Shown here: positions 13,934 through 23,704 of the stretch, piece by piece
Layout: every line of letters begins with the position of its first letter
How positions within the stretch are numbered: position 1 is the stretch's first letter
Source: Candidatus Omnitrophota bacterium
GTDB lineage: Bacteria > Omnitrophota > Gorgyraeia > Zapsychrales > JANLHA01
NCBI GenBank assembly: GCA_963662715.1
Contig: OY759724.1
Span: 2,700,001-2,732,000, forward strand
Direction of reading: 5' to 3'
Length of the DNA: 32,000 nt
Notes under the pieces: model-generated
The model's input: only the letters and a program-made list of their open reading frames with translations
The model's database searches: none
What the model was told of the DNA's origin: nothing
Position numbers and translations under genes: made by a program

Positions 13934-13962
13934 TTGAATCTGAATATTTTTAGTGATATAAT
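13934..13962 (+). promoter_or_regulatory. Near-consensus sigma-70 promoter (TTGAAT-17 nt-TATAAT)
   Basis: TTGAAT at 13934-13939, a 17-nt spacer, and TATAAT at 13957-13962. It lies inside the TTG-initiated 5-prime extension of the track ORF, which argues for the ATG at 14009. Confidence 0.6.
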
Positions 13963-14008
13963 TCTCCGATTATTCATTTCATTTATTAATCCCGGAAACA
14001 AAACTATT

Positions 14009-15643
14009 ATGCGCAGAGCGTTAACAATTATTCTTTGCTTATGTTTACTGTCGTCCTTTTGGGCCTGTCCCTGTCCGGTTCATGCGGAGGATGATTATTC
14101 CCTGGTCTCTTATTATTTGTCCCGGGGCGAGAAGAAACTTGAGAAAGAGGACTTTCTTGCGGCGATGAATCAGTTCCTGATTGTCATGCTGCTGGAACCC
14201 TCCCAGAAAGCCGCCCGGGAATATCTCCAGCGTTCGGAAATCAGTGCCGTATTGCCCGCACAGTTTGATCAATATAAGCTGAAGAAATTCCTTGATCTTG
14301 CGGACCAGACCGATTTCCTGAACTCCCGTATTGCCTATGTCGATGAGTCTAACGAAAGACTGTTTGATTTTATTCACAAGAATAACCTTGTGACAGCGGA
14401 GAACCGGGATAATATCAACGCTTTAATGGCTCTTGTCAAACCCAAGAGAGATATTTCTTCGCTGACGGCTAAATTAGAACAGTTGCGGGATGCCGAAGAC
14501 GTCGAAACTCTGGGCCTGGCCATTAAACTGATGCTTGAACAGAAAGAACGGTCGATCCAAGTGTTGCAGGCAAGACAAAAAATCAATAAACAGCTGCGGA
14601 CATTGAAACAGGCGTTGCTGGAAAAGGAAATCTCCCGTCAGAAATCTGCTGAGGTTGAAACGGACGGTCAGCGCTTTAGCCGCATCCGGGAGCGTTTGGC
14701 GGAGAAGGAAATGCAGATAAAAACACAGGATGATCAGATGAAAGTTCTTCGGGAGGAGCTGACGGCTGTCCGTCTGCAATTTGCCGATATGCAGGCGAAA
14801 ATGAACACGACCGACCAGAAATTAGCCGTGTTAACGAAGGAACTTGCCGGGATGTCCCTGGATGTTTTGAGCAAAGAAAAACTCATTGAAAAAAGGAACG
14901 AGACGATAGAGGATCTGAACGCGCAATTAGAGGAAGCACAGGCACAAATGCAGCTTATTCAGGGCATTATTCAGGAGAAGGATGGCCAGATCACCGAATT
15001 TAAGAAACAATTGAATCAGATGAAAGAGCTCGTTGAGACCCGGGAGACATCCGTATTTAACCAGCCGGAAAGGATCCCGGAAGATATGTATCCTGAGGAC
15101 GACACGGTTGTTTTCACCGATGAAGCGCAGAATAAACTGGATAGCTTTGAACAGAAACTGGAAGCCCTGACTTTAAAATATCAGACATTAGAAGGCGTTG
15201 TCCAGGAAAAGGAGGCGCAGATCGATCAGCTGAACCAACTCGTGGGTGTTTTAGACGGGAAAATTATTTCCTACCGGCAGACAAACACAAAAAAGATCCG
15301 GGAACTGAACCAGGTCTACGGAATATTGGAAATTTATAAAGGCCGGTTGGAACAAACATGTGATCTTCTCAAGAAGAAAGAACAGTATATCATAGAAGTT
15401 GAACAGCAGCTGCGTGGCCTAGAAAGCCTTTTTGACAAACATTCATTCGATTTAACGGGTGAATCTCTCCCTGCCGAAGAAGAGACGGATGAAGAGGAAT
15501 ACGTTCCCCCCGCAGAGTCTCTGATTCAAGAACCTCCGGAGAAATCTCAAGAGTCTCCTGTCTTTGAAAGTACAAAGCAGCATATTCAGAGTTTGCTTAT
15601 GAATGCCAGGCCCCTGAATTACAGTATTATTCATTTTGAATAA
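14009..15643 (+). CDS. Secreted long coiled-coil protein with N-terminal TPR-like helix pair
   Basis: Signal peptide (MRRALTIILCLCLLSSFWACPCPVHA|EDD). About 400 aa follow of heptad-like, E/K/Q/L-rich sequence, then an acidic C-terminal tail. Confidence 0.7.
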   Translation: MRRALTIILCLCLLSSFWACPCPVHAEDDYSLVSYYLSRGEKKLEKEDFLAAMNQFLIVMLLEPSQKAAREYLQRSEISAVLPAQFDQYKLKKFLDLADQTDFLNSRIAYVDESNERLFDFIHKNNLVTAENRDNINALMALVKPKRDISSLTAKLEQLRDAEDVETLGLAIKLMLEQKERSIQVLQARQKINKQLRTLKQALLEKEISRQKSAEVETDGQRFSRIRERLAEKEMQIKTQDDQMKVLREELTAVRLQFADMQAKMNTTDQKLAVLTKELAGMSLDVLSKEKLIEKRNETIEDLNAQLEEAQAQMQLIQGIIQEKDGQITEFKKQLNQMKELVETRETSVFNQPERIPEDMYPEDDTVVFTDEAQNKLDSFEQKLEALTLKYQTLEGVVQEKEAQIDQLNQLVGVLDGKIISYRQTNTKKIRELNQVYGILEIYKGRLEQTCDLLKKKEQYIIEVEQQLRGLESLFDKHSFDLTGESLPAEEETDEEEYVPPAESLIQEPPEKSQESPVFESTKQHIQSLLMNARPLNYSIIHFE

Positions 15644-15676
15644 ATCATAACAATATATCTACGGATGGAGTTATTT

Positions 15677-17155
15677 ATGAAGAAAGCAGTAACCTGTTGT
15701 ATTCTTTCTGTATGCCTCTGTTGTGTCATCCCTTCTCAGGGGCATTGCAAGGACCATCGTGATTCCGTGGTTAAGATTTTTGTGACTTCAAACAGCATGG
15801 ATTATTACCGCCCCTGGCAGTCCCGGGGAAGCTATTCATCGACTGGGTCGGGATGCGTCCTCGAGGGGCAGCGCATTATTACCAATGCGCATGTTGTGGC
15901 GGATAATACGTTCATTCAAGTGCGGAAGGAATCAGACCCGACCAAATATACGGCAAAAGTGGAGGCTGTCGGTCATGACTGTGACTTGGCTATTCTTAAA
16001 GTCGACAATCCGGAATTTTTTGCCGGAATTACCCCTCTGCAATTCGGGGAGCTTCCCCAGTTGCAGGATACCGTCGTTGTCCTCGGTTTCCCGCAGGGAG
16101 GAGACAAGTTGTCCATTACGGAGGGTGTGATTTCGAGGATTGAAATAGTCCCTTATGTGCAGAGCTCCAAAAGACTCCTGGCCGTGCAGATCGATGCGGC
16201 CATAAATCCGGGGAATAGCGGCGGGCCGGTTATCAAGGATGGCAAGATTGTCGGCGTGGCCATGCAGGCGATGAGCCACAGCCAGAATATCGGGTATATG
16301 ATCCCGGTGCCGATTATTGAACACTTTCTTGAGGATTTGGAGGATAACGGTGAATACAACGGGTTCCCCAGCTTGGGCGTGGAATACAATAATACGGAAA
16401 GTCCCGCTTTAAGGGATTATTATCGCTTGGAAAAGCAGCATGGGGGCGTTTACATTACAAGGGTCTTGCCGTTCTCTTCCGCTGACGGGATTTTAGAGGA
16501 GGGAGACGTGGTCCTGGAAGTCAACGGCGTTCCTATCGGGATGGACGGGACTTTCGAGTTTCGCGAGAATGAACGCTTGAGTTTTTCTTACCTCGTGCAT
16601 AACCAGTATATTGGAAATTCTGTCCCTGTTAAAATTGCCAGAGACGGTAAAATCTTGGAAGAAACCGTTCGTTTCAAACAATTCGTCGGGATGATCCCTC
16701 ATCCGCATTATTATGAAAAACCCTCTTATTATATTTACGGAGGATTTGTCTTCACGGTTTTAAGTACGGATTTGTTGCGTTCCTGGGGAAAGCAATGGTG
16801 GGAAAAAGCTCCTTTGGTTTTTCTTAATCATTTTATGGGCAATGGCCGGTTGAATTTGGAGCGGAAAAAGGAGGTCGTTGTCCTTTTGCAGGTTCTGCCG
16901 GACGATATCAATATCGGTTATCATGATATGAGCAACGAGGTGATCGAGAAGGTCAACGGGAAAGAGTTTTCTTCTTTCAGGGAATTTATTGAGATAATCG
17001 CCAATACAAAACCACCTGTTACTTTTATCGAGACAGGCCTGCATCACCACATTATTATTAACAATAACGAAATAAATCAGATTACCCGGAACATTATAGA
17101 ACGTAACAATATCCCGGCGCAGTTTTCTGAAGATGTCGCTGGCTGGTTGCCGTGA
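15677..17155 (+). CDS. Deg/HtrA-type (S1C) serine protease with PDZ-like region
   Basis: Catalytic triad contexts are present: ITNAHVV (His), DCDLAILKV (Asp) and NPGNSGGPV (Ser). It has a signal peptide. GGAG lies 6 nt upstream of the ATG at 15677; the track start is 15665. Confidence 0.85.
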   Translation: MKKAVTCCILSVCLCCVIPSQGHCKDHRDSVVKIFVTSNSMDYYRPWQSRGSYSSTGSGCVLEGQRIITNAHVVADNTFIQVRKESDPTKYTAKVEAVGHDCDLAILKVDNPEFFAGITPLQFGELPQLQDTVVVLGFPQGGDKLSITEGVISRIEIVPYVQSSKRLLAVQIDAAINPGNSGGPVIKDGKIVGVAMQAMSHSQNIGYMIPVPIIEHFLEDLEDNGEYNGFPSLGVEYNNTESPALRDYYRLEKQHGGVYITRVLPFSSADGILEEGDVVLEVNGVPIGMDGTFEFRENERLSFSYLVHNQYIGNSVPVKIARDGKILEETVRFKQFVGMIPHPHYYEKPSYYIYGGFVFTVLSTDLLRSWGKQWWEKAPLVFLNHFMGNGRLNLERKKEVVVLLQVLPDDINIGYHDMSNEVIEKVNGKEFSSFREFIEIIANTKPPVTFIETGLHHHIIINNNEINQITRNIIERNNIPAQFSEDVAGWLP

Positions 17156-17376: not shown

Positions 17377-18762
17377 ATGAGGAAAATAAAATATGGCATT
17401 TTTTTGCAGATTTTGGCGGTTTTTTTAGTTCTTGTCTTTTGCTGGGATCAGAAATTATACGCTGCGGTGACGTTAAGCGTTTCTCCTGATGAGGGAGGGA
17501 ATAGCCTGCGGTTCGGTAGGGTCGATACGTTCTCCTCCGTAGACAAGGAAGTCCGGATCCGGGTGACCGGCAGTGAAGGCAATCAGTATCAGGTTTTTCA
17601 GAGAATGATGGCTCCTTTGGTCAATGAGAAAGGCGAATCTCTTGACCGTTCAGTGATATTGACCGGCGGGTTGTTAGGGTCGAATGCCCGGGGGAGTCTG
17701 TATATCCAGGACGTAGAACAGTTGGGTTTTTCGGATCAGCAGGTTTATTCCTCTGATCAGGCGGGCACGGCGGATTCATTTGTGCTTCTTTACCGGGTCG
17801 ATCCATCGGCGATTTCTGCAACAGGCTCTTTTCAGGGGCAGCTCCTTTATACTGTCCGGCCTATCGGAGGGAGCAGTTTTGACGAAGTTGTTCTTACTTT
17901 GACCCTGGATGCCGGAGGTGATTTGAAAATTGAGGCCCAGGGGCCGGACGGCTCCGACCGGGTAAGGTTGACGACGGCCGAACGACATATTCAGGACAGT
18001 GCTTTTTCTGTTTCCTTTTCCAGTAATATCGGGGGAAGCAAGATCCGTATCTATCAGGAGGTGGAATCGTTGCCCCGAGATGAACTTCTGCAGCCCGTAG
18101 AGGAAGGTTTGGTCCAGTATCTGGCGCTGGGAGGGGAAAACGGGGATATTCAGCAGGCCAGTTCTGCTGCCCTGCGTCCGGGAAGGGAGCTTTTGTATGA
18201 AAGTACGGCGACTCATGATACCGTTGATGTCTTTTTCAGCGTGAATGCAGATGTGGTGCAGGAATATAAGGCCGGGGATTATGAAGGCAGCATTCGTTAT
18301 ATTATCGAAAGCCGTAACGGGGAGCAGACCGTGGATTGCGTGCTGGCTTTAAATGTAGCGTCTGTCTTTGAACTGAATGTTGAATATCCTCAGGAAGGAA
18401 TGAGTTTCCGGGGGGCTTTGGAGTCCGATCCCCCGCAGGTACGGGAAGTGCAGGTAACAGTGAAATCCAACCTGGGCAAACCTTATGTTATTAACCAGCT
18501 GATTCAAGCCCCGTTAACCAATGAAAAAGGCGTTGAATTTTCCCATGAATTTTTTACTATGAAAGAGGAGGTTCTGGACGGGGACGGGCATATCCCGCAT
18601 GATGATTTTTCACCAGTTGGCATCGGTGAGGTTCCTTTGTACGTTTCTGATGACCAGGGGTCATCCGCAGAGTTGAAAATAAGCTATCGTATGAAGCCTT
18701 ACCATTTTATGCAAGCTGGAAGTTATAAACTGCAAGTTGTTTATTCTTTAGGCGCTATTTAA
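17377..18762 (+). CDS. Secreted protein of three tandem Ig-like/fimbrial-subunit-like modules
   Basis: It has a signal peptide. Three roughly 140-aa modules align with each other (e.g. NQYQVFQRMMAPLVNEKGESL vs KPYVINQLIQAPLTNEKGVEF). Each module ends in a G-x-Y/F-x-x-x-hydrophobic-alternating strand (TGSFQGQLLYTV, AGDYEGSIRYII, AGSYKLQVVYSL). Confidence 0.6.
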   Translation: MRKIKYGIFLQILAVFLVLVFCWDQKLYAAVTLSVSPDEGGNSLRFGRVDTFSSVDKEVRIRVTGSEGNQYQVFQRMMAPLVNEKGESLDRSVILTGGLLGSNARGSLYIQDVEQLGFSDQQVYSSDQAGTADSFVLLYRVDPSAISATGSFQGQLLYTVRPIGGSSFDEVVLTLTLDAGGDLKIEAQGPDGSDRVRLTTAERHIQDSAFSVSFSSNIGGSKIRIYQEVESLPRDELLQPVEEGLVQYLALGGENGDIQQASSAALRPGRELLYESTATHDTVDVFFSVNADVVQEYKAGDYEGSIRYIIESRNGEQTVDCVLALNVASVFELNVEYPQEGMSFRGALESDPPQVREVQVTVKSNLGKPYVINQLIQAPLTNEKGVEFSHEFFTMKEEVLDGDGHIPHDDFSPVGIGEVPLYVSDDQGSSAELKISYRMKPYHFMQAGSYKLQVVYSLGAI

Positions 18763-18789: not shown

Positions 18790-19434
18790 ATGCGAAAATT
18801 GATTTGGTTAGCGATTTTTCTTGCCGGAGCCATGATGTGTTTGAGCCCGGCCGTCTACGCGCAAACAAGTTCTGCGGCGTATGATATCTCTGTCACCATT
18901 GATAATGCCAGTACAGCCACGTTTGTGGTCTATCAGATAGATGCCGGTGTTTTCACGGCCTGGACAGACACGACGCTGTCATTCAATCCGGTCCTGACCG
19001 ATGTCAGAGAAGACCCGGCCGACCCGCCTGCCTATGCCTATTTAGGGGATGTGTATTATGCCATCGATGTTTTCCCGTACGGGGCAGGGGCCTTGAACGT
19101 AACACTGTCCTACAGCAATGCTGATCCGGCTTATGATCTGGGTGTGCATGCCATCGGAACTCCGGTTTCGAATGATGATAATGGAACACCAACGATTTAT
19201 ACTGACGATACTGAGACTCCGGTAGGGGTTAAAGCAATCCTGAACAGTATTGCTCAGACAATATATGCCTCCGATATCCTCGCTAACGGGGATTACTTGC
19301 GTTTTTACGTCGGTTTGGCCACGGGTGATCCCACTGAGAATGAACCGTCCGGCGCTGTCCCGTTTAATCCCGGTGATACCCCTGGTCATTATGAAGGCAC
19401 GTTAACAATGACAGTGGCAGCACCTGGGCCATAG
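18790..19434 (+). CDS. Secreted small subunit-like protein (candidate major fibre subunit)
   Basis: GGAGGG lies 7 nt upstream of the ATG. It has a signal peptide (AVYA|QTSS). The C-terminal strand PGHYEGTLTMTV is the same motif seen in the modules of the upstream gene. A strong hairpin follows. Confidence 0.6.
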   Translation: MRKLIWLAIFLAGAMMCLSPAVYAQTSSAAYDISVTIDNASTATFVVYQIDAGVFTAWTDTTLSFNPVLTDVREDPADPPAYAYLGDVYYAIDVFPYGAGALNVTLSYSNADPAYDLGVHAIGTPVSNDDNGTPTIYTDDTETPVGVKAILNSIAQTIYASDILANGDYLRFYVGLATGDPTENEPSGAVPFNPGDTPGHYEGTLTMTVAAPGP

Positions 19435-19456
19435 TCAGATCTTGAAAATTATTTTA

Positions 19457-19488
19457 TTATGCGGGCAAGGGATTCCTTGCCCGCATAA
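19457..19488 (+). promoter_or_regulatory. Perfect 14-bp intercistronic stem-loop without U-tract
   Basis: ttatgcgggcaagg-gatt-ccttgcccgcataa. It sits between the subunit-like gene and the chaperone-like gene. Confidence 0.6.
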
Positions 19489-19503
19489 TATGTCCTGTGA
19501 TAT

Positions 19504-20316
19504 ATGAAAAATTTTTATCTGGTATTACTATTTATTTGTATTTTTTATGGGGGGATCCCGTCTCCGGCGGAAGCCCAACTGGTCCTGCAGAAGAGTGTCG
19601 TCCAACACGATATCCCGAAGGGCGGGACTGTCGTTGATTCTTTTGATGTCACTAACAGCACCAACAAGCCTTTAGGGATAAAATTGTACTGGCAGGATTT
19701 TATTTATAAAGCTCCTTACGACAAGGGGGCAAAAGATTTTATGCCGGCGGGGACATCCGATTATTCCTGTGCGGATATGGTGACCTTCAGCCCCACAAAT
19801 CTGACGTTGCCGCCGTTCGGCAAGGAGAATATCAAATATTCTTTCAAAACCCCTGAAGATTTCCAGGGGGGCTGTGATGGCGTGCTCTTTTTTGAAATGG
19901 ACCGGGATGTCAGTAAGGCCAAAATGGGCATGAGTTTTGTGACGCGTATCGGGGCGCTGTTTTTCCTGGAATCAACGGATAAAGATAAAACGGCTGATGT
20001 GAAAGATTTTTCTTTCGATCAGGCCCGTCTGCAGGGGTCCTTTCATAATCAGGGGAATATTGTTCTTTTCCCCAAAGGCATTTATTATATTCTCAATGAG
20101 GACGGTCTGGTGGAGGACCGGGGCGAGGTGAACAAGCTTTATATCCCTCCCGGCGCCAGAGCCGACTTTCATTTTTCTGTGCCGGAAGCGTTGGATGCCG
20201 GGACCTATACGGTTGTCCTGACGTTCGATCTTGACGGCGGGGACAGTATTGTTAAAGAAGCTGATTTCACGAAAAGTCCTGCCGGGGCTTTTCGTCTTAT
20301 CGCCACAAGGGATTGA
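19504..20316 (+). CDS. Periplasmic PapD-like chaperone candidate (two Ig-like halves)
   Basis: It has a signal peptide. The segment order matches fimbrial chaperones: FDVTNSTNKPLGIKLYW, then LTLPPFGKENIKYSF, then MSFVTRIGALFFLE, then a second beta domain (FHNQGNIVLFPKG...LYIPPGARADFHFSV). This is a call from pattern only. Confidence 0.45.
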   Translation: MKNFYLVLLFICIFYGGIPSPAEAQLVLQKSVVQHDIPKGGTVVDSFDVTNSTNKPLGIKLYWQDFIYKAPYDKGAKDFMPAGTSDYSCADMVTFSPTNLTLPPFGKENIKYSFKTPEDFQGGCDGVLFFEMDRDVSKAKMGMSFVTRIGALFFLESTDKDKTADVKDFSFDQARLQGSFHNQGNIVLFPKGIYYILNEDGLVEDRGEVNKLYIPPGARADFHFSVPEALDAGTYTVVLTFDLDGGDSIVKEADFTKSPAGAFRLIATRD

Positions 20317-20479: not shown

Positions 20480-23215
20480 ATGACAAAACTTTCGTTGGGG
20501 ATTCTTATAGCCGCATTATTAGCTGTCTTTTTTTGCGGAACAAGCTATGCAGACTCGGAGACAGATTACCATTATTACATGGTCCTGGGGATCAGAGCTT
20601 TTGATAAAGGTTTCTATGATAAAGCGATTTGGTATTTTGAAGAAGCCCAGGCTGTAGACCCTACCAAAAGCACTCCTTTAAAATATATCAAGCTTATTAA
20701 ACGGTTCAAGGAAGGCCGTTTGTCTGTTGTTCAGCCGCCCGTTCGGCAGAAAAAAGGGGCGCCCACACCCGTTGCGCAGGAAAAGTCCGTCATTGAACAG
20801 CACCTTGCGACATCCCGAAAAATGATCGAAGCTAAAGACATGGTCCTGCAGCCTAAGGAGGCTGAAGTTCTTGTCCTGAATGATCAGTTCTGGTCTCTGC
20901 AGCCTAACCTGGAACTGGAAATTGAAACGAACAAGGTTTATGTTTTTCAGGGACAAAATGTCAAACGTTTTTTAAGTGTCAAAGAAGGCGTGCTGGATGT
21001 CGACCGTCTTGATAAGGACCGTATCAGCATATCAGCCAAGAACCGCGCATCGACATTTTTCCATGTCTGGGACGACCGCGGACGCTGGACTTTTCATGTC
21101 CAGGGGAAGCTCCCGGTTCTTTATCAGAATACCCGGGCTCAACAGTTTAAGGATACAGGGATGGAAGACAATCCTCCTTTAAAGATAGCTTATTCTAATA
21201 ACTGGGGGGCTATTTATCGGGGCAACAGTATTCCGGACATGGAACGTTCGAGTTTGACATTTACCCAGTGGGTCGGGACACACGGAAGAATCCCATACGG
21301 AAACTTTGATGCCTCCATGAATTTTTACAAATATGCAGAATCCACGGAAAGAATCGGTGAACGGATGGGCTTGGGGGACGGACGCATCGGCCCGTTTAAG
21401 GATTTTAATATACGCGGCTTTGATACCGAAGTCTATTTGTCGGATTTCTCCGTGCCGGGGCGAAGCTTCCGAGGGGTGCGGTTTGACAGTTACGCATTTA
21501 ACCGGAGATTGAATTATACATTATTTCAGGGGCAGGACAGGGCCCAGTTCCTTTTTATCAGCCCTTCCATTCTGGATGTCCGTAAGACCTATATTGAAGG
21601 CGCCAGTGCCACCTTGTTCCCGGACAGTGACCATAACTACACGATTAATTACGCCCGGGGCTACGGAGACTACCGGGATAACTTTTTGAAAAATAAAGCA
21701 TTTTCTGCTGAAACCGAACATAAGTTTTATAATTTAAAGGTCTCCGGGGAAGTGGGGTACGATGAAGACGTCTATAGCGAAGTTATACGGACAGAATTTA
21801 AAAGATATAATCACACTCTGAATGTGAATGTCCGCGATATTCATAAGGATTATGTTACCGTTGTCGGACGCCCTTCCGGCCGGGGGGAAGCCGGCGGGAA
21901 TATCCGTTATAATTTGAAACTGGAAAAGACGCGTTTTAATTCCAACCTCGACGTTTACCGGAACCGCTATCTGAACAACCCTGAACAGGACGGGGTGAAT
22001 TTTGACTGGAACGGCTCCATGAATCATACCTTGTCTTCCAGCTCTTCCTGGTCCGCGGCAGCATTTGTCTCCTATACGCCGCAGCTTGTTTCCCCGCATC
22101 AAAGCATGAGCCTGACAAACTATTATCATAAAAGGTTCCCTTTCCTCTACGGTCAGGCCATGTCGATGTCTTTGGGGCATTCTTTCCAGAGAAATCGTTA
22201 TGAAGAATCTCCCTTCGCGGAATTTGACCGCAACACGTTATCGGCGGGCTTTAGAATCCCGCTGTTCCCGGACGTGGGTTTTTTTGCCAATTATGATTAC
22301 TCTTTTGTCCATAATATCCAGGAAGACCTGCAGACTTATCCCCAGGTCTTCACAGCCGGCGTGGACTATAATAAAACCCTGTATAATCATGTCATCGGCC
22401 GGTGGAGCCTCCGTTATCGTAATGAGGAAAATGCCACCGGTCAGTTCAGTTTTTTATCGGGAGAAGATTCGATCCGGGGAACAGTGGGCCTCAGTTACCG
22501 CCCGAATCCCGGTTTTGAAATTTACCTGGACAGTAATGTCCGCAGTGTCTGGACAGAGGACCCGGATAACCCCGCTTTTAATGATGCCGATGTCCGAATC
22601 GGTTTTCGCTCCAGTTGGGACACGTTCTTCCATTGGAATCCCACCGGGATTTTCCAGGGACGGGTCTTTAATGATAGCAACGGCAATGCCCGGTACGACC
22701 CGGGGGAAGAGGGGCTGGCTGACATTGGGGTGAAAGTCGGAGATAAGACCGTTAGGACCAACAGCCGGGGAGAGTATTTTGCCACGGTCAGGGCGAAAAA
22801 AGTGCGTGTCGCTTTGGATCTGGGATCTTTACCCATGGGATACATCAATTCAGACGGTTTTATGCGGGATATTGTCGTGGAACATAGACAGGTTAATGCG
22901 GTTGACTTTGGCCTGACCAGCCAGGCCGGGATTTACGGTGTCGTTTATATCGACCGGAACCTGACCGGAACGCTGGATCAGGGAGATGAGTTTATCGCAA
23001 GGGCGAAGATTATCCTTGATGGACAGCATGTCGCGTACAGTGATTTTGAAGGGACATACAGCTTTGATAACATTAAACCCGGTCAACATGTCATCTCGAT
23101 CGATATCAATTCTCTTCCGCTCCAATATATCCCGCTTATCAAGCTCAACAATGAGATTGAAGTCGGGGAAGGGATCACGTATGTTTTTAATATCCCGTTA
23201 AAGGAAGGAAAATAA
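20480..23215 (+). CDS. Large outer-membrane protein: signal peptide, TPR-like helices, CpaC-type pilus N-domain, beta-barrel, two SdrD-B/carboxypeptidase-regulatory-like domains
   Basis: Signal peptide ending SYA|DSE. The segment VKRFLSVKEGVLDVDRLDKDRISISAKNRASTFFHVWDDRGRWTFHVQ matches the pilus-formation N-terminal domain pattern. About 480 aa follow of aromatic-rich alternating strands (GFFANYDYSF, GRWSLRYRNEE, ADVRIGFRSSWDTFF). The C-terminus has GRVFNDSNGNARYDPGEEGLADIGVKV and GVVYIDRNLTGTLDQGDEF...SDFEGTYSFDNIKPGQHVISI. Confidence 0.6.
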   Translation: MTKLSLGILIAALLAVFFCGTSYADSETDYHYYMVLGIRAFDKGFYDKAIWYFEEAQAVDPTKSTPLKYIKLIKRFKEGRLSVVQPPVRQKKGAPTPVAQEKSVIEQHLATSRKMIEAKDMVLQPKEAEVLVLNDQFWSLQPNLELEIETNKVYVFQGQNVKRFLSVKEGVLDVDRLDKDRISISAKNRASTFFHVWDDRGRWTFHVQGKLPVLYQNTRAQQFKDTGMEDNPPLKIAYSNNWGAIYRGNSIPDMERSSLTFTQWVGTHGRIPYGNFDASMNFYKYAESTERIGERMGLGDGRIGPFKDFNIRGFDTEVYLSDFSVPGRSFRGVRFDSYAFNRRLNYTLFQGQDRAQFLFISPSILDVRKTYIEGASATLFPDSDHNYTINYARGYGDYRDNFLKNKAFSAETEHKFYNLKVSGEVGYDEDVYSEVIRTEFKRYNHTLNVNVRDIHKDYVTVVGRPSGRGEAGGNIRYNLKLEKTRFNSNLDVYRNRYLNNPEQDGVNFDWNGSMNHTLSSSSSWSAAAFVSYTPQLVSPHQSMSLTNYYHKRFPFLYGQAMSMSLGHSFQRNRYEESPFAEFDRNTLSAGFRIPLFPDVGFFANYDYSFVHNIQEDLQTYPQVFTAGVDYNKTLYNHVIGRWSLRYRNEENATGQFSFLSGEDSIRGTVGLSYRPNPGFEIYLDSNVRSVWTEDPDNPAFNDADVRIGFRSSWDTFFHWNPTGIFQGRVFNDSNGNARYDPGEEGLADIGVKVGDKTVRTNSRGEYFATVRAKKVRVALDLGSLPMGYINSDGFMRDIVVEHRQVNAVDFGLTSQAGIYGVVYIDRNLTGTLDQGDEFIARAKIILDGQHVAYSDFEGTYSFDNIKPGQHVISIDINSLPLQYIPLIKLNNEIEVGEGITYVFNIPLKEGK

Positions 23216-23377: not shown

Positions 23378-23638
23378 TTATTTGGCGACGATGGTTTTTC
23401 GAATAACCGTGTGCCCGTCTTCCTGTATTTCTTCCGTAAAGACATTGAATTGAGCTTTTATCGGCGCGTTATCAACAGTTTCTTCAGACATGTTTTCCAT
23501 CGGGGCATTAATACCGGGTACGGCCGGTATATAAACGACGATCCTGAAATCCTGGGAGGCCGTCGCCCCGTAAATATCCTGGCACAGGGATGCGAGGATT
23601 ATCGCTGTGACCATGCCTAAAAAGTATATATGTTTCAT
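23378..23638 (-). CDS. Small secreted protein, unknown function (riboswitch-controlled)
   Basis: 86 aa with a signal peptide (MKHIYFLGMVTAIILASLCQDIYG). GGGAG lies 5 nt upstream of the ATG. It sits directly downstream of the GEMM-I aptamer and its terminator. Confidence 0.7.
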   Translation of the reverse strand: MKHIYFLGMVTAIILASLCQDIYGATASQDFRIVVYIPAVPGINAPMENMSEETVDNAPIKAQFNVFTEEIQEDGHTVIRKTIVAK

Positions 23639-23655: not shown

Positions 23656-23688
23656 AAAGAAAAAGCCCTTCGAAAGATTCGAAGGGCT
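23656..23688 (-). terminator. Intrinsic terminator hairpin (riboswitch expression platform)
   Basis: On the minus strand: agcccttcgaa-tct-ttcgaagggct, a perfect 11-bp stem, followed by ttttcttt. It ends about 17 nt before the start codon at 23638. Confidence 0.75.
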
Positions 23689-23704
23689 CATTATTTACGA
23701 AACC

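Follow-up and report, generated by a model that had tools for sequence, protein, structure and literature searches.

An usher-like outer-membrane protein in a five-gene chaperone-usher-like module conserved across the uncultured phylum Omnitrophota

Ushers of the FimD/PapC type follow a common plan, in which an N-terminal periplasmic domain is followed by a 24-strand outer-membrane β-barrel and two C-terminal β-sandwich domains, and a plug domain placed between barrel strands 6 and 7 gates the pore. In the classification of Nuccio and Bäumler, chaperone-usher pili are described as occurring mainly in Proteobacteria, while a few other phyla have archaic forms. The Omnitrophota are uncultured, ultra-small bacteria that are presumed to attach to other cells or to prey on them. 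Here we analyzed a 32,000-nucleotide stretch of the genome of a Candidatus Omnitrophota bacterium (contig OY759724.1, positions 2,700,001 to 2,732,000; the window) that contains an open reading frame (ORF) of 911 amino acids (aa) with an ATG start at 20480-23215 on the forward strand, the exact coordinates given in a preliminary description made from the sequence alone. The encoded protein, which we refer to as the porin, is usher-like in its domain layout and lies in a five-gene chaperone-usher-like module that is conserved across the phylum Omnitrophota. We think it likely that the porin is the outer-membrane assembly and secretion pore, and thus the functional usher, of an Omnitrophota-specific chaperone-usher-like surface-fibre system.

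The 911-aa gene is real, as it has 55 homologues that match it over nearly its full length at 33-66% identity; where named, these are proteins of Omnitrophota metagenome-assembled genomes (MAGs). The family comprises at least about 120 full-length clusters at 50% identity among the best 150 library matches, and its members range from 908 to 1230 aa, with the extra length at the N-terminus. From N- to C-terminus, the window protein contains a signal peptide (residues 1-24, ending SYA/D) whose cleavage site precedes a helical hairpin resembling a tetratricopeptide repeat (TPR; residues 24-77, 20549-20710), with model helices at 24-42, 46-59 and 65-77. This hairpin is followed by a disordered linker (residues 80-124, 20717-20851) that has a predicted local distance difference test score (pLDDT) below 50 and differs in length among homologues, and by a β-domain of the CpaC/RcpA-type pil_N family (PF13629; residues 129-210, 20864-21109). 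The β-barrel (residues 235-717, 21182-22630) comes next, and the protein ends with two β-sandwich domains, the first SdrD-B/prealbumin-like (residues 722-815, 22643-22924) and the second SdrD-B/CarboxypepD_reg-like (residues 817-911, 22928-23212). All of these features are encoded on the forward strand.

Searched on its own against Pfam, the window protein matched SdrD_B in two stretches (E 6.8e-7) and CarboxypepD_reg (E 0.002), and gave weak matches to T2SS-T3SS_pil_N (E 0.11, residues 145-203) and TPR_2 (E 0.18, residues 32-62). Among 47 full-length homologues, SdrD_B was found in every one (best E 5e-16), pil_N in 38 (best E 8.6e-9) and TPR_2 in 30 (best E 2.6e-7), and distant family members retain pil_N and the barrel, together with two or, in some of them, three SdrD-B domains. 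The order of domains from signal peptide to the two SdrD-B domains had already been read in the preliminary description, from segments that fall at residues 30-61 (YHYY...AVDP), 171-208 (VLDV...FHVQ) and 705-717 (VRIGFRSSWDTFF), and it is borne out by Pfam across the homologues and by the structural model. A search of PDB sequences with the single protein returned weak TPR matches only, while the porin family profile matched the SdrD B region of entry 10ps (E 7e-8, profile positions 756-905) as well as consensus TPR designs; neither query found a PDB match outside the TPR and SdrD-B parts, and a search of NCBIfam with the porin gave no match. Compared by hhalign, the two C-terminal domains prove to be paralogues (98.9%, E 3e-17), and each conserves a DxNxNGxxD motif of the Ca-binding SdrD-B type.

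An AlphaFold2 model of the porin, built from the 47-sequence alignment, had a mean pLDDT of 85 and a predicted template modelling score (pTM) of 0.60. Assignment of secondary structure by DSSP revealed 26 long strands between residues 235 and 714, connected by loops of which the longest is 16 residues (453-470), and ending with the strand FNDADVRIGFRSSWD, which is followed by TFF. The barrel thus spans about 480 residues and stops where the preliminary description had placed its end, with two separate domains at 722-815 and 817-911 beyond it. As the predicted strand count is even, both termini would lie on the same side of the membrane, presumably the periplasmic one. When the model was compared with the PDB using Foldseek, the 15 best matches were all FimD or PapC (E 3.6e-20 to 9.3e-9). 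Full-length usher chains (E 3.6e-20 to 3e-14) scored far better than the best barrel-only match, the FimD translocation domain 3ohn, which comprises barrel plus plug (E 6.7e-10, target template modelling (TM) score, TMt, 0.46), whereas unrelated barrels, including FadL, TonB-dependent transporters and porins, started at about 1e-8; in E-value, the full-length ushers lead every other barrel by over six orders of magnitude. According to the preliminary description, it is unusual for soluble domains to follow an outer-membrane barrel, and the layout does not resemble that of ushers. Neither view survives this comparison, as FimD and PapC themselves carry two β-sandwich domains after the barrel and are the closest folds to the model.

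We then turned to the surrounding genes. The window contains three ORFs of 461, 214 and 270 aa upstream of the porin on the same strand and one of 86 aa downstream in convergent orientation, all with signal peptides and none with a Pfam match; we refer to the first, second and last of these as p461, p214 and p86. A scan of GTDB species representatives with a 12-sequence porin alignment yielded 40 related loci, in which gene order was read by a hidden Markov model scan of all ORFs. This revealed the order p461, p214 (in one or two copies), the 270-aa gene and the porin in all 40 related loci that were of sufficient length to show it. Of the 36 related loci whose sequence continues beyond the porin gene, 35 have the p86 gene there in convergent orientation, as does the window. 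The genes that flank the module differ between loci, and the genomic context of four porin homologues likewise comprised the same four genes plus a small convergent one between unrelated flanks. Nearly all loci are labelled either Omnitrophota or, in some MAG sets, 'uncultured Planctomycetia/Planctomycetales'. Two stray labels, a Methanosarcinales archaeon MAG (L023) and a Lysobacterales MAG (L033), are probably binning errors; the archaeal label is of interest in that some Omnitrophota attack methanogens.

All five module proteins are annotated as 'hypothetical' or misnamed 'tetratricopeptide repeat protein', and the curated libraries hold no name for any of them. Our literature searches on Omnitrophota together with usher, and on PF13629, found no prior description. 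Two genome surveys of Omnitrophota, one of them PMC10066038, discuss only type IV/Tad pili and giant adhesins, and leave ushers and fimbriae unmentioned. Upstream in the window, a secreted coiled-coil protein of 569 aa (13934-15643, forward strand) bears a single N-terminal TPR hairpin like that of the porin (hmmsearch E 4e-6 to the family profile), and the gene that follows it encodes an HtrA-like protease with a PDZ_3 domain (15665-17155); in other loci both lie outside the conserved module.

The 270-aa gene (19504-20316, forward strand) directly precedes the porin gene and encodes a periplasmic protein that by model, Foldseek and hhalign resembles PapD-like chaperones, particularly CfaA and EcpB. 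Its AlphaFold2 model consists of two Ig-like domains (pLDDT 89.7, pTM 0.76), and the only low-confidence stretch of the mature protein is a loop at about residues 133-147, directly before the strand 148-157, a position that we take to correspond to that of the F1-G1 loop in the chaperones of chaperone-usher systems. About 38 of the top 50 Foldseek matches were such chaperones, including CfaA, Caf1M, EcpB, DraB, CupB2, FimC, YadV, SafB and PapD, and the best TM-score was obtained with CfaA (0.64-0.67).

Profile comparisons point the same way. As references for hhalign we used proteins from the authentic E. coli fim, sfm, elf, yad, yeh and ecp operons and from five class-5 operons recovered with a CfaB query. 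With signal peptides removed, the 270-aa family matched EcpB/EcpE at 92% (E 7e-7), compared with 95% for class-5 chaperones against EcpB/EcpE using the same shallow profiles; classical chaperones could not be linked with such shallow profiles to the 270-aa family, to class-5 chaperones or to EcpB/EcpE (signal peptides removed). Against eight E. coli chaperones the family scored 71% (E 3.7e-5). The best PDB sequence match of the family profile was EcpB (E 0.015), with TRIGALFFLE of strand 148-157 aligned to ARIGTILVVAP, such that Arg148 in the TRIG motif, which is invariant in the family, corresponds to the arginine of ARIG in EcpB. In PapD, the cleft residues Arg8 and Lys112 anchor the C-terminus of the subunit. 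The first strand of the 270-aa family begins with a nearly conserved basic residue, and in the alignment to classical chaperones Lys112 has no basic counterpart in the family. Three homologues have been labelled 'P pilus assembly chaperone PapD' by the Joint Genome Institute (JGI). Taken together, it is credible that the 270-aa protein is a member of the PapD-like superfamily, nearest to its alternate (CfaA/Ecp) branch.

By E-value, the best Foldseek matches of the 270-aa model were to a Gram-positive protein, the WxL-interacting protein (WxLIP) of E. faecium (3e-12; TM-score 0.43-0.48), including the WxLIP-WxL complex, and the Pfam family WxLIP_PGBD was found in 12 of 20 homologues, whereas PapD_N was found in none of the 20. 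The resemblance to WxLIP, which is not known as a pilus chaperone, tells against a fibre-assembly role for the neighbour and, together with candidate subunits that match no pilin family, allows for a different arrangement, in which the porin would export its neighbours as a non-polymeric surface complex, adhesin- or S-layer-like in the manner of WxL/WxLIP, with the 270-aa protein as a stable partner or anchor. We judge this arrangement to be unlikely. The TM-score is higher to CfaA than to WxLIP, the profiles tie the protein to EcpB/EcpE, no C-terminal membrane anchor was found in the 270-aa protein, the porin ranks with ushers, and a hairpin after p214, described below, points to a need for one component in large excess. 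As an observation in its own right, the likeness might reflect a structural link of WxLIP to PapD-like chaperones; this link is not mentioned in the WxL paper PMC10599100, and a literature search on WxLIP together with chaperone found no prior description.

The remaining module proteins are candidate subunits. All three carry a signal peptide, as read from their sequences, open with a short motif of alternating strand character and have a β-strand-like motif within 1-3 residues of the C-terminus, and none of them matched Pfam, NCBIfam or PDB sequences. The first gene, p461 (17377-18762, forward strand), encodes a secreted protein of 461 aa in which an orphan domain of about 140 aa occurs three times in tandem; the copies match one another by hhalign (99.6, 99.5 and 98.2%), each ending with a G-x-Y/F-x-G-x-h-x-Y strand motif; it is a candidate tip protein, adhesin or multi-domain fibre component. 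The second, p214 (18790-19434, forward strand), encodes a secreted protein of 214 aa and is the putative major fibre subunit. In an alignment of 34 orthologues, a strand motif with the consensus FxVSAxVPxA directly follows its signal peptide and a strand, GxYxGTLTxTAT, forms the extreme C-terminal end; its other homologues in a profile search were all unnamed Omnitrophota proteins. The p86 gene (23378-23638, reverse strand) is defined by its conserved position and by alignments, and leaves about 60 mature residues of 86 aa, too few for a whole Ig domain. Its N-terminal motif, YxISVTIPAxPGxN, resembles the N-terminus of p214, with a match that is suggestive only (hhalign E 1.4e-3 over 20 columns, signal peptides removed), and its C-terminal strand ends in K or R.

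None of p214, p461 and p86 was significantly similar by hhalign to classical pilins, class-5 pilins or CfaE-type adhesins, which speaks against a pilus-like fibre; known pilin classes were also unmatched to each other in the same comparison, so this negative is weak. Apparent matches of p214 to classical pilins (58%), of p86 to p214 (95%) and of p461 to p214 (77%) were driven by signal peptides and collapsed on their removal, and were discarded. The p214 gene is duplicated in L037, L046 and L049, and L046 also has an extra ORF of 521 aa, which lies upstream of p461 and is recognized by the p214 profile. The two p214 paralogues and the additional ORF of L046 suggest diversification into major and minor subunits.

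Directly after the p214 gene, folding of the intercistronic junction revealed a stem-loop with a perfect 16-bp stem (19455-19490, forward strand). Within windows of 50 nt, a hairpin at least as strong as -20 kcal/mol was found after p214 in 28 of 40 loci, after p461 and after the chaperone gene in none of 40, and after the usher-like gene in 3 of 35. Since the major-pilin genes of the pap and fim operons are followed by such hairpin structures, we read p214 as an abundant structural subunit, and the hairpin probably adjusts how strongly the subunit is expressed relative to the assembly genes. The position and size of p214, its terminal strand motifs and this hairpin together lead us to infer a pilin role as major fibre subunit. 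A second, GC-rich palindromic stem-loop of 11-12 bp lies at 23663-23689 just upstream of the p86 start; it reads on both strands and could be a terminator that acts in both directions or a structure within a 5' leader.

Several properties of the porin weigh against its being an usher. At the level of sequence families, Usher (PF00577), PapC_N and PapC_C had no match in the window protein at E <= 1, none among the first 25 of the 36 families listed for the 47 homologues and none in 10 distant family members. Compared by hhalign with six E. coli ushers and five class-5 ushers, over the whole length and domain by domain, the porin family reached a non-significant 0.4-1.4% with the classical set and 6.6% with the class-5 set, while classical and class-5 ushers matched each other at 60%. 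No porin segment matched an usher domain, and none resembled the FimD N-terminal domain or the FimD plug; the best of these non-significant alignments was colinear and paired the last barrel strands plus the first C-terminal domain. At the level of structure, TM-scores to ushers are modest (0.28-0.46) with a large root-mean-square deviation, the barrel has 26 predicted strands instead of the 24 of ushers, and no plug domain is inserted in the modelled barrel. A helix at 214-226, with a pLDDT of about 56 and a sequence that is not conserved, is unlikely to serve as the plug. In addition, the duplicated C-terminal domains are recent paralogues of SdrD-B type, so that the layout could be convergent.

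By these comparisons the porin falls outside the FimD/PapC sequence family, and because the TM-scores are modest we limit the claim to an usher-like layout and best fold match in the model, as opposed to a close structural copy of an usher. A confident usher match exists in fold and gene context and fails in sequence-family membership. Taken part by part, the β-domain at 129-210 occupies the place of the usher N-terminal domain but belongs to PF13629 and has no similarity to that of FimD, the two C-terminal β-sandwiches are present in the model but are of the SdrD_B family, and the gene sits in an operon with a PapD-like chaperone gene, in which p214, p461 and p86 would be the secreted subunits. 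The combination of domains, which the preliminary description did not recognize from described ushers, secretins or TPR-porins, is in Pfam, NCBIfam and the PDB that of no described sequence family; what is familiar is the layout, which is the FimD/PapC usher plan.

The same negative results could be read to mean that the porin is a large general or substrate-specific uptake channel for nutrients or polymers, usher-like by convergence and functionally unrelated to its neighbours, as it has no plug domain and no sequence homology to ushers and its TM-scores to ushers are barely above those to TonB-dependent transporters. We consider this very unlikely, given that four partner genes are strictly co-conserved in 40 loci with unrelated flanks, that the lead of full-length ushers in E-value exceeds six orders of magnitude, and that pil_N is, according to its Pfam description, otherwise known from pilus secretins.

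The pil_N domain raises a further alternative, namely that the porin serves a Tad/type IV pilus or a type II secretion machine as an accessory or alternative outer-membrane component, or is an exopolysaccharide TPR-porin of the PgaA/BcsC type. Besides pil_N in 38 of the 47 homologues and one TPR motif, this would fit with Tad and type IV pili being common in Omnitrophota (PMC10066038). The Secretin domain (PF00263) was absent from the window protein and from 10 distant members, as well as from the first 25 of the 36 families listed for the 47 homologues, and the top 50 fold matches of the model included no secretin, PgaA or BcsC structure. Neither the window nor the conserved module contains tad, pil, gsp or polysaccharide synthase genes. 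An identity as a secretin (CpaC/RcpA, GspD) was rejected for want of both a secretin domain and a secretin fold match, and one as a TPR-porin (PgaA/BcsC) on account of the single TPR hairpin, a 26-strand barrel that is followed by two domains and so is not C-terminal, and a module devoid of synthase genes. We regard this alternative, in all its forms, as highly improbable and the least likely of those considered.

We return to the porin as the functional usher of a fibre-assembly system, for which the following mechanism is proposed by analogy with FimD/PapC. The p461, p214 and p86 proteins would be exported by Sec and captured in the periplasm by the 270-aa chaperone, which would insert its strand 148-157 into their incomplete folds. 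Chaperone-subunit complexes would then dock on the periplasmic domains of the porin, with pil_N standing in for the N-terminal domain of an usher and the SdrD-B-like pair for its C-terminal domains CTD1 and CTD2. Subunits would be joined by donor-strand exchange, in which the conserved N-terminal strand (FxVSAxVPxA) replaces the strand of the chaperone, and the growing fibre would exit through the 26-strand barrel, which in the absence of a plug may be gated by other means. In this scheme p214 would be the major subunit, with the hairpin raising its transcript level relative to the assembly genes. That the module forms a fibre at all we likewise infer.

As the porin has no sequence match to ushers, no plug, 26 strands, a PF13629 N domain and paralogous C-terminal domains, its usher layout may have been assembled convergently. 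Going beyond the assignment of the porin, we tentatively propose, as a possibility we still hold to be doubtful, that the module is a separate, very deep or convergent branch of chaperone-usher systems and makes a fibre organelle found throughout the Omnitrophota, which are ultra-small and probably depend on hosts. Such a branch would be characterized by a plug-less 26-strand pore, a secretin-type N domain with a TPR tether and duplicated Ca-binding C-terminal domains, as well as by a three-domain first subunit, p461, and a p86 of about 60 residues that has only a donor-strand-like N-terminus. In this picture, p86 might serve as a cap, terminator or anchor of the fibre, occupying the groove of the last subunit where the chaperone would otherwise sit.

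If correct, a conserved version of the chaperone-usher pathway in Omnitrophota that is an orphan in sequence would widen the reach of this pathway, and would provide a natural experiment on which usher parts are indispensable, as it does without the plug and has other domains in the N-terminal and C-terminal places. The module is also a candidate attachment organelle that current annotation has wholly missed. Instead of an unprecedented fusion, the 911-aa gene would then represent the pore of a coherent, phylum-wide and unannotated fibre-assembly module, one that departs informatively from canonical ushers.

Among described systems, FimD/PapC is the closest in overall plan. Like these ushers, the porin is predicted to be a large monomeric barrel with a periplasmic β-domain before it and two β-sandwich domains after it, FimD and PapC are the best PDB fold matches of its model, and its gene is immediately preceded by that of a PapD-like chaperone, in an operon that also encodes small secreted proteins, which appear β-rich. 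Unlike these ushers, it has no detectable sequence similarity to PF00577 (Usher), PF13954 (PapC_N) or PF13953 (PapC_C), is predicted to have 26 strands in place of 24, and has no plug between strands 6 and 7. Its N domain belongs to the secretin-type family PF13629 and is preceded by a TPR hairpin on a disordered tether, its C-terminal domains are SdrD-B-type paralogues with Ca-site-like motifs, whereas CTD1 and CTD2 of FimD are not detectably alike, and its host phylum is Omnitrophota.

The neighbouring genes instead bring class 5 CFA/I (CfaABCE) and the E. coli common pilus (EcpA-E) to mind, as the best TM-score of the 270-aa protein is to CfaA and its best profile link is to EcpB/EcpE, with which it shares an RIG motif before the donor-like strand. 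By eye only, the terminal motifs of p214, FxVSAxVPxA and GxYxGTLTxTAT, are like the donor strand ITVTASVDP and the last strand GNYSGVVSLVMTL of CfaB, although p214 is not significantly similar to class-5 pilins by hhalign. The module differs from CFA/I and Ecp in its gene order, with two subunit genes followed by the chaperone and then the porin, and in its extra conserved convergent 86-aa gene, and the porin is unrelated in sequence to CfaC-type ushers.

Two further families are shared in part. With the CpaC/RcpA secretins of Tad systems the porin has in common a PF13629 β-domain near the N-terminus of an outer-membrane pilus-related protein, but it differs from them in having no secretin domain, in being predicted to form a monomeric 26-strand barrel instead of a multimeric secretin pore and in having no tad genes nearby. 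Its C-terminal domains match the SdrD B repeat and CarboxypepD_reg families and carry the DxNxNGxxD motifs. SdrD B repeats bind Ca, which is the basis for comparing the sites. Whereas SdrD B repeats form part of a Gram-positive surface stalk, the copies in the porin follow a membrane barrel and would be located in the periplasm.

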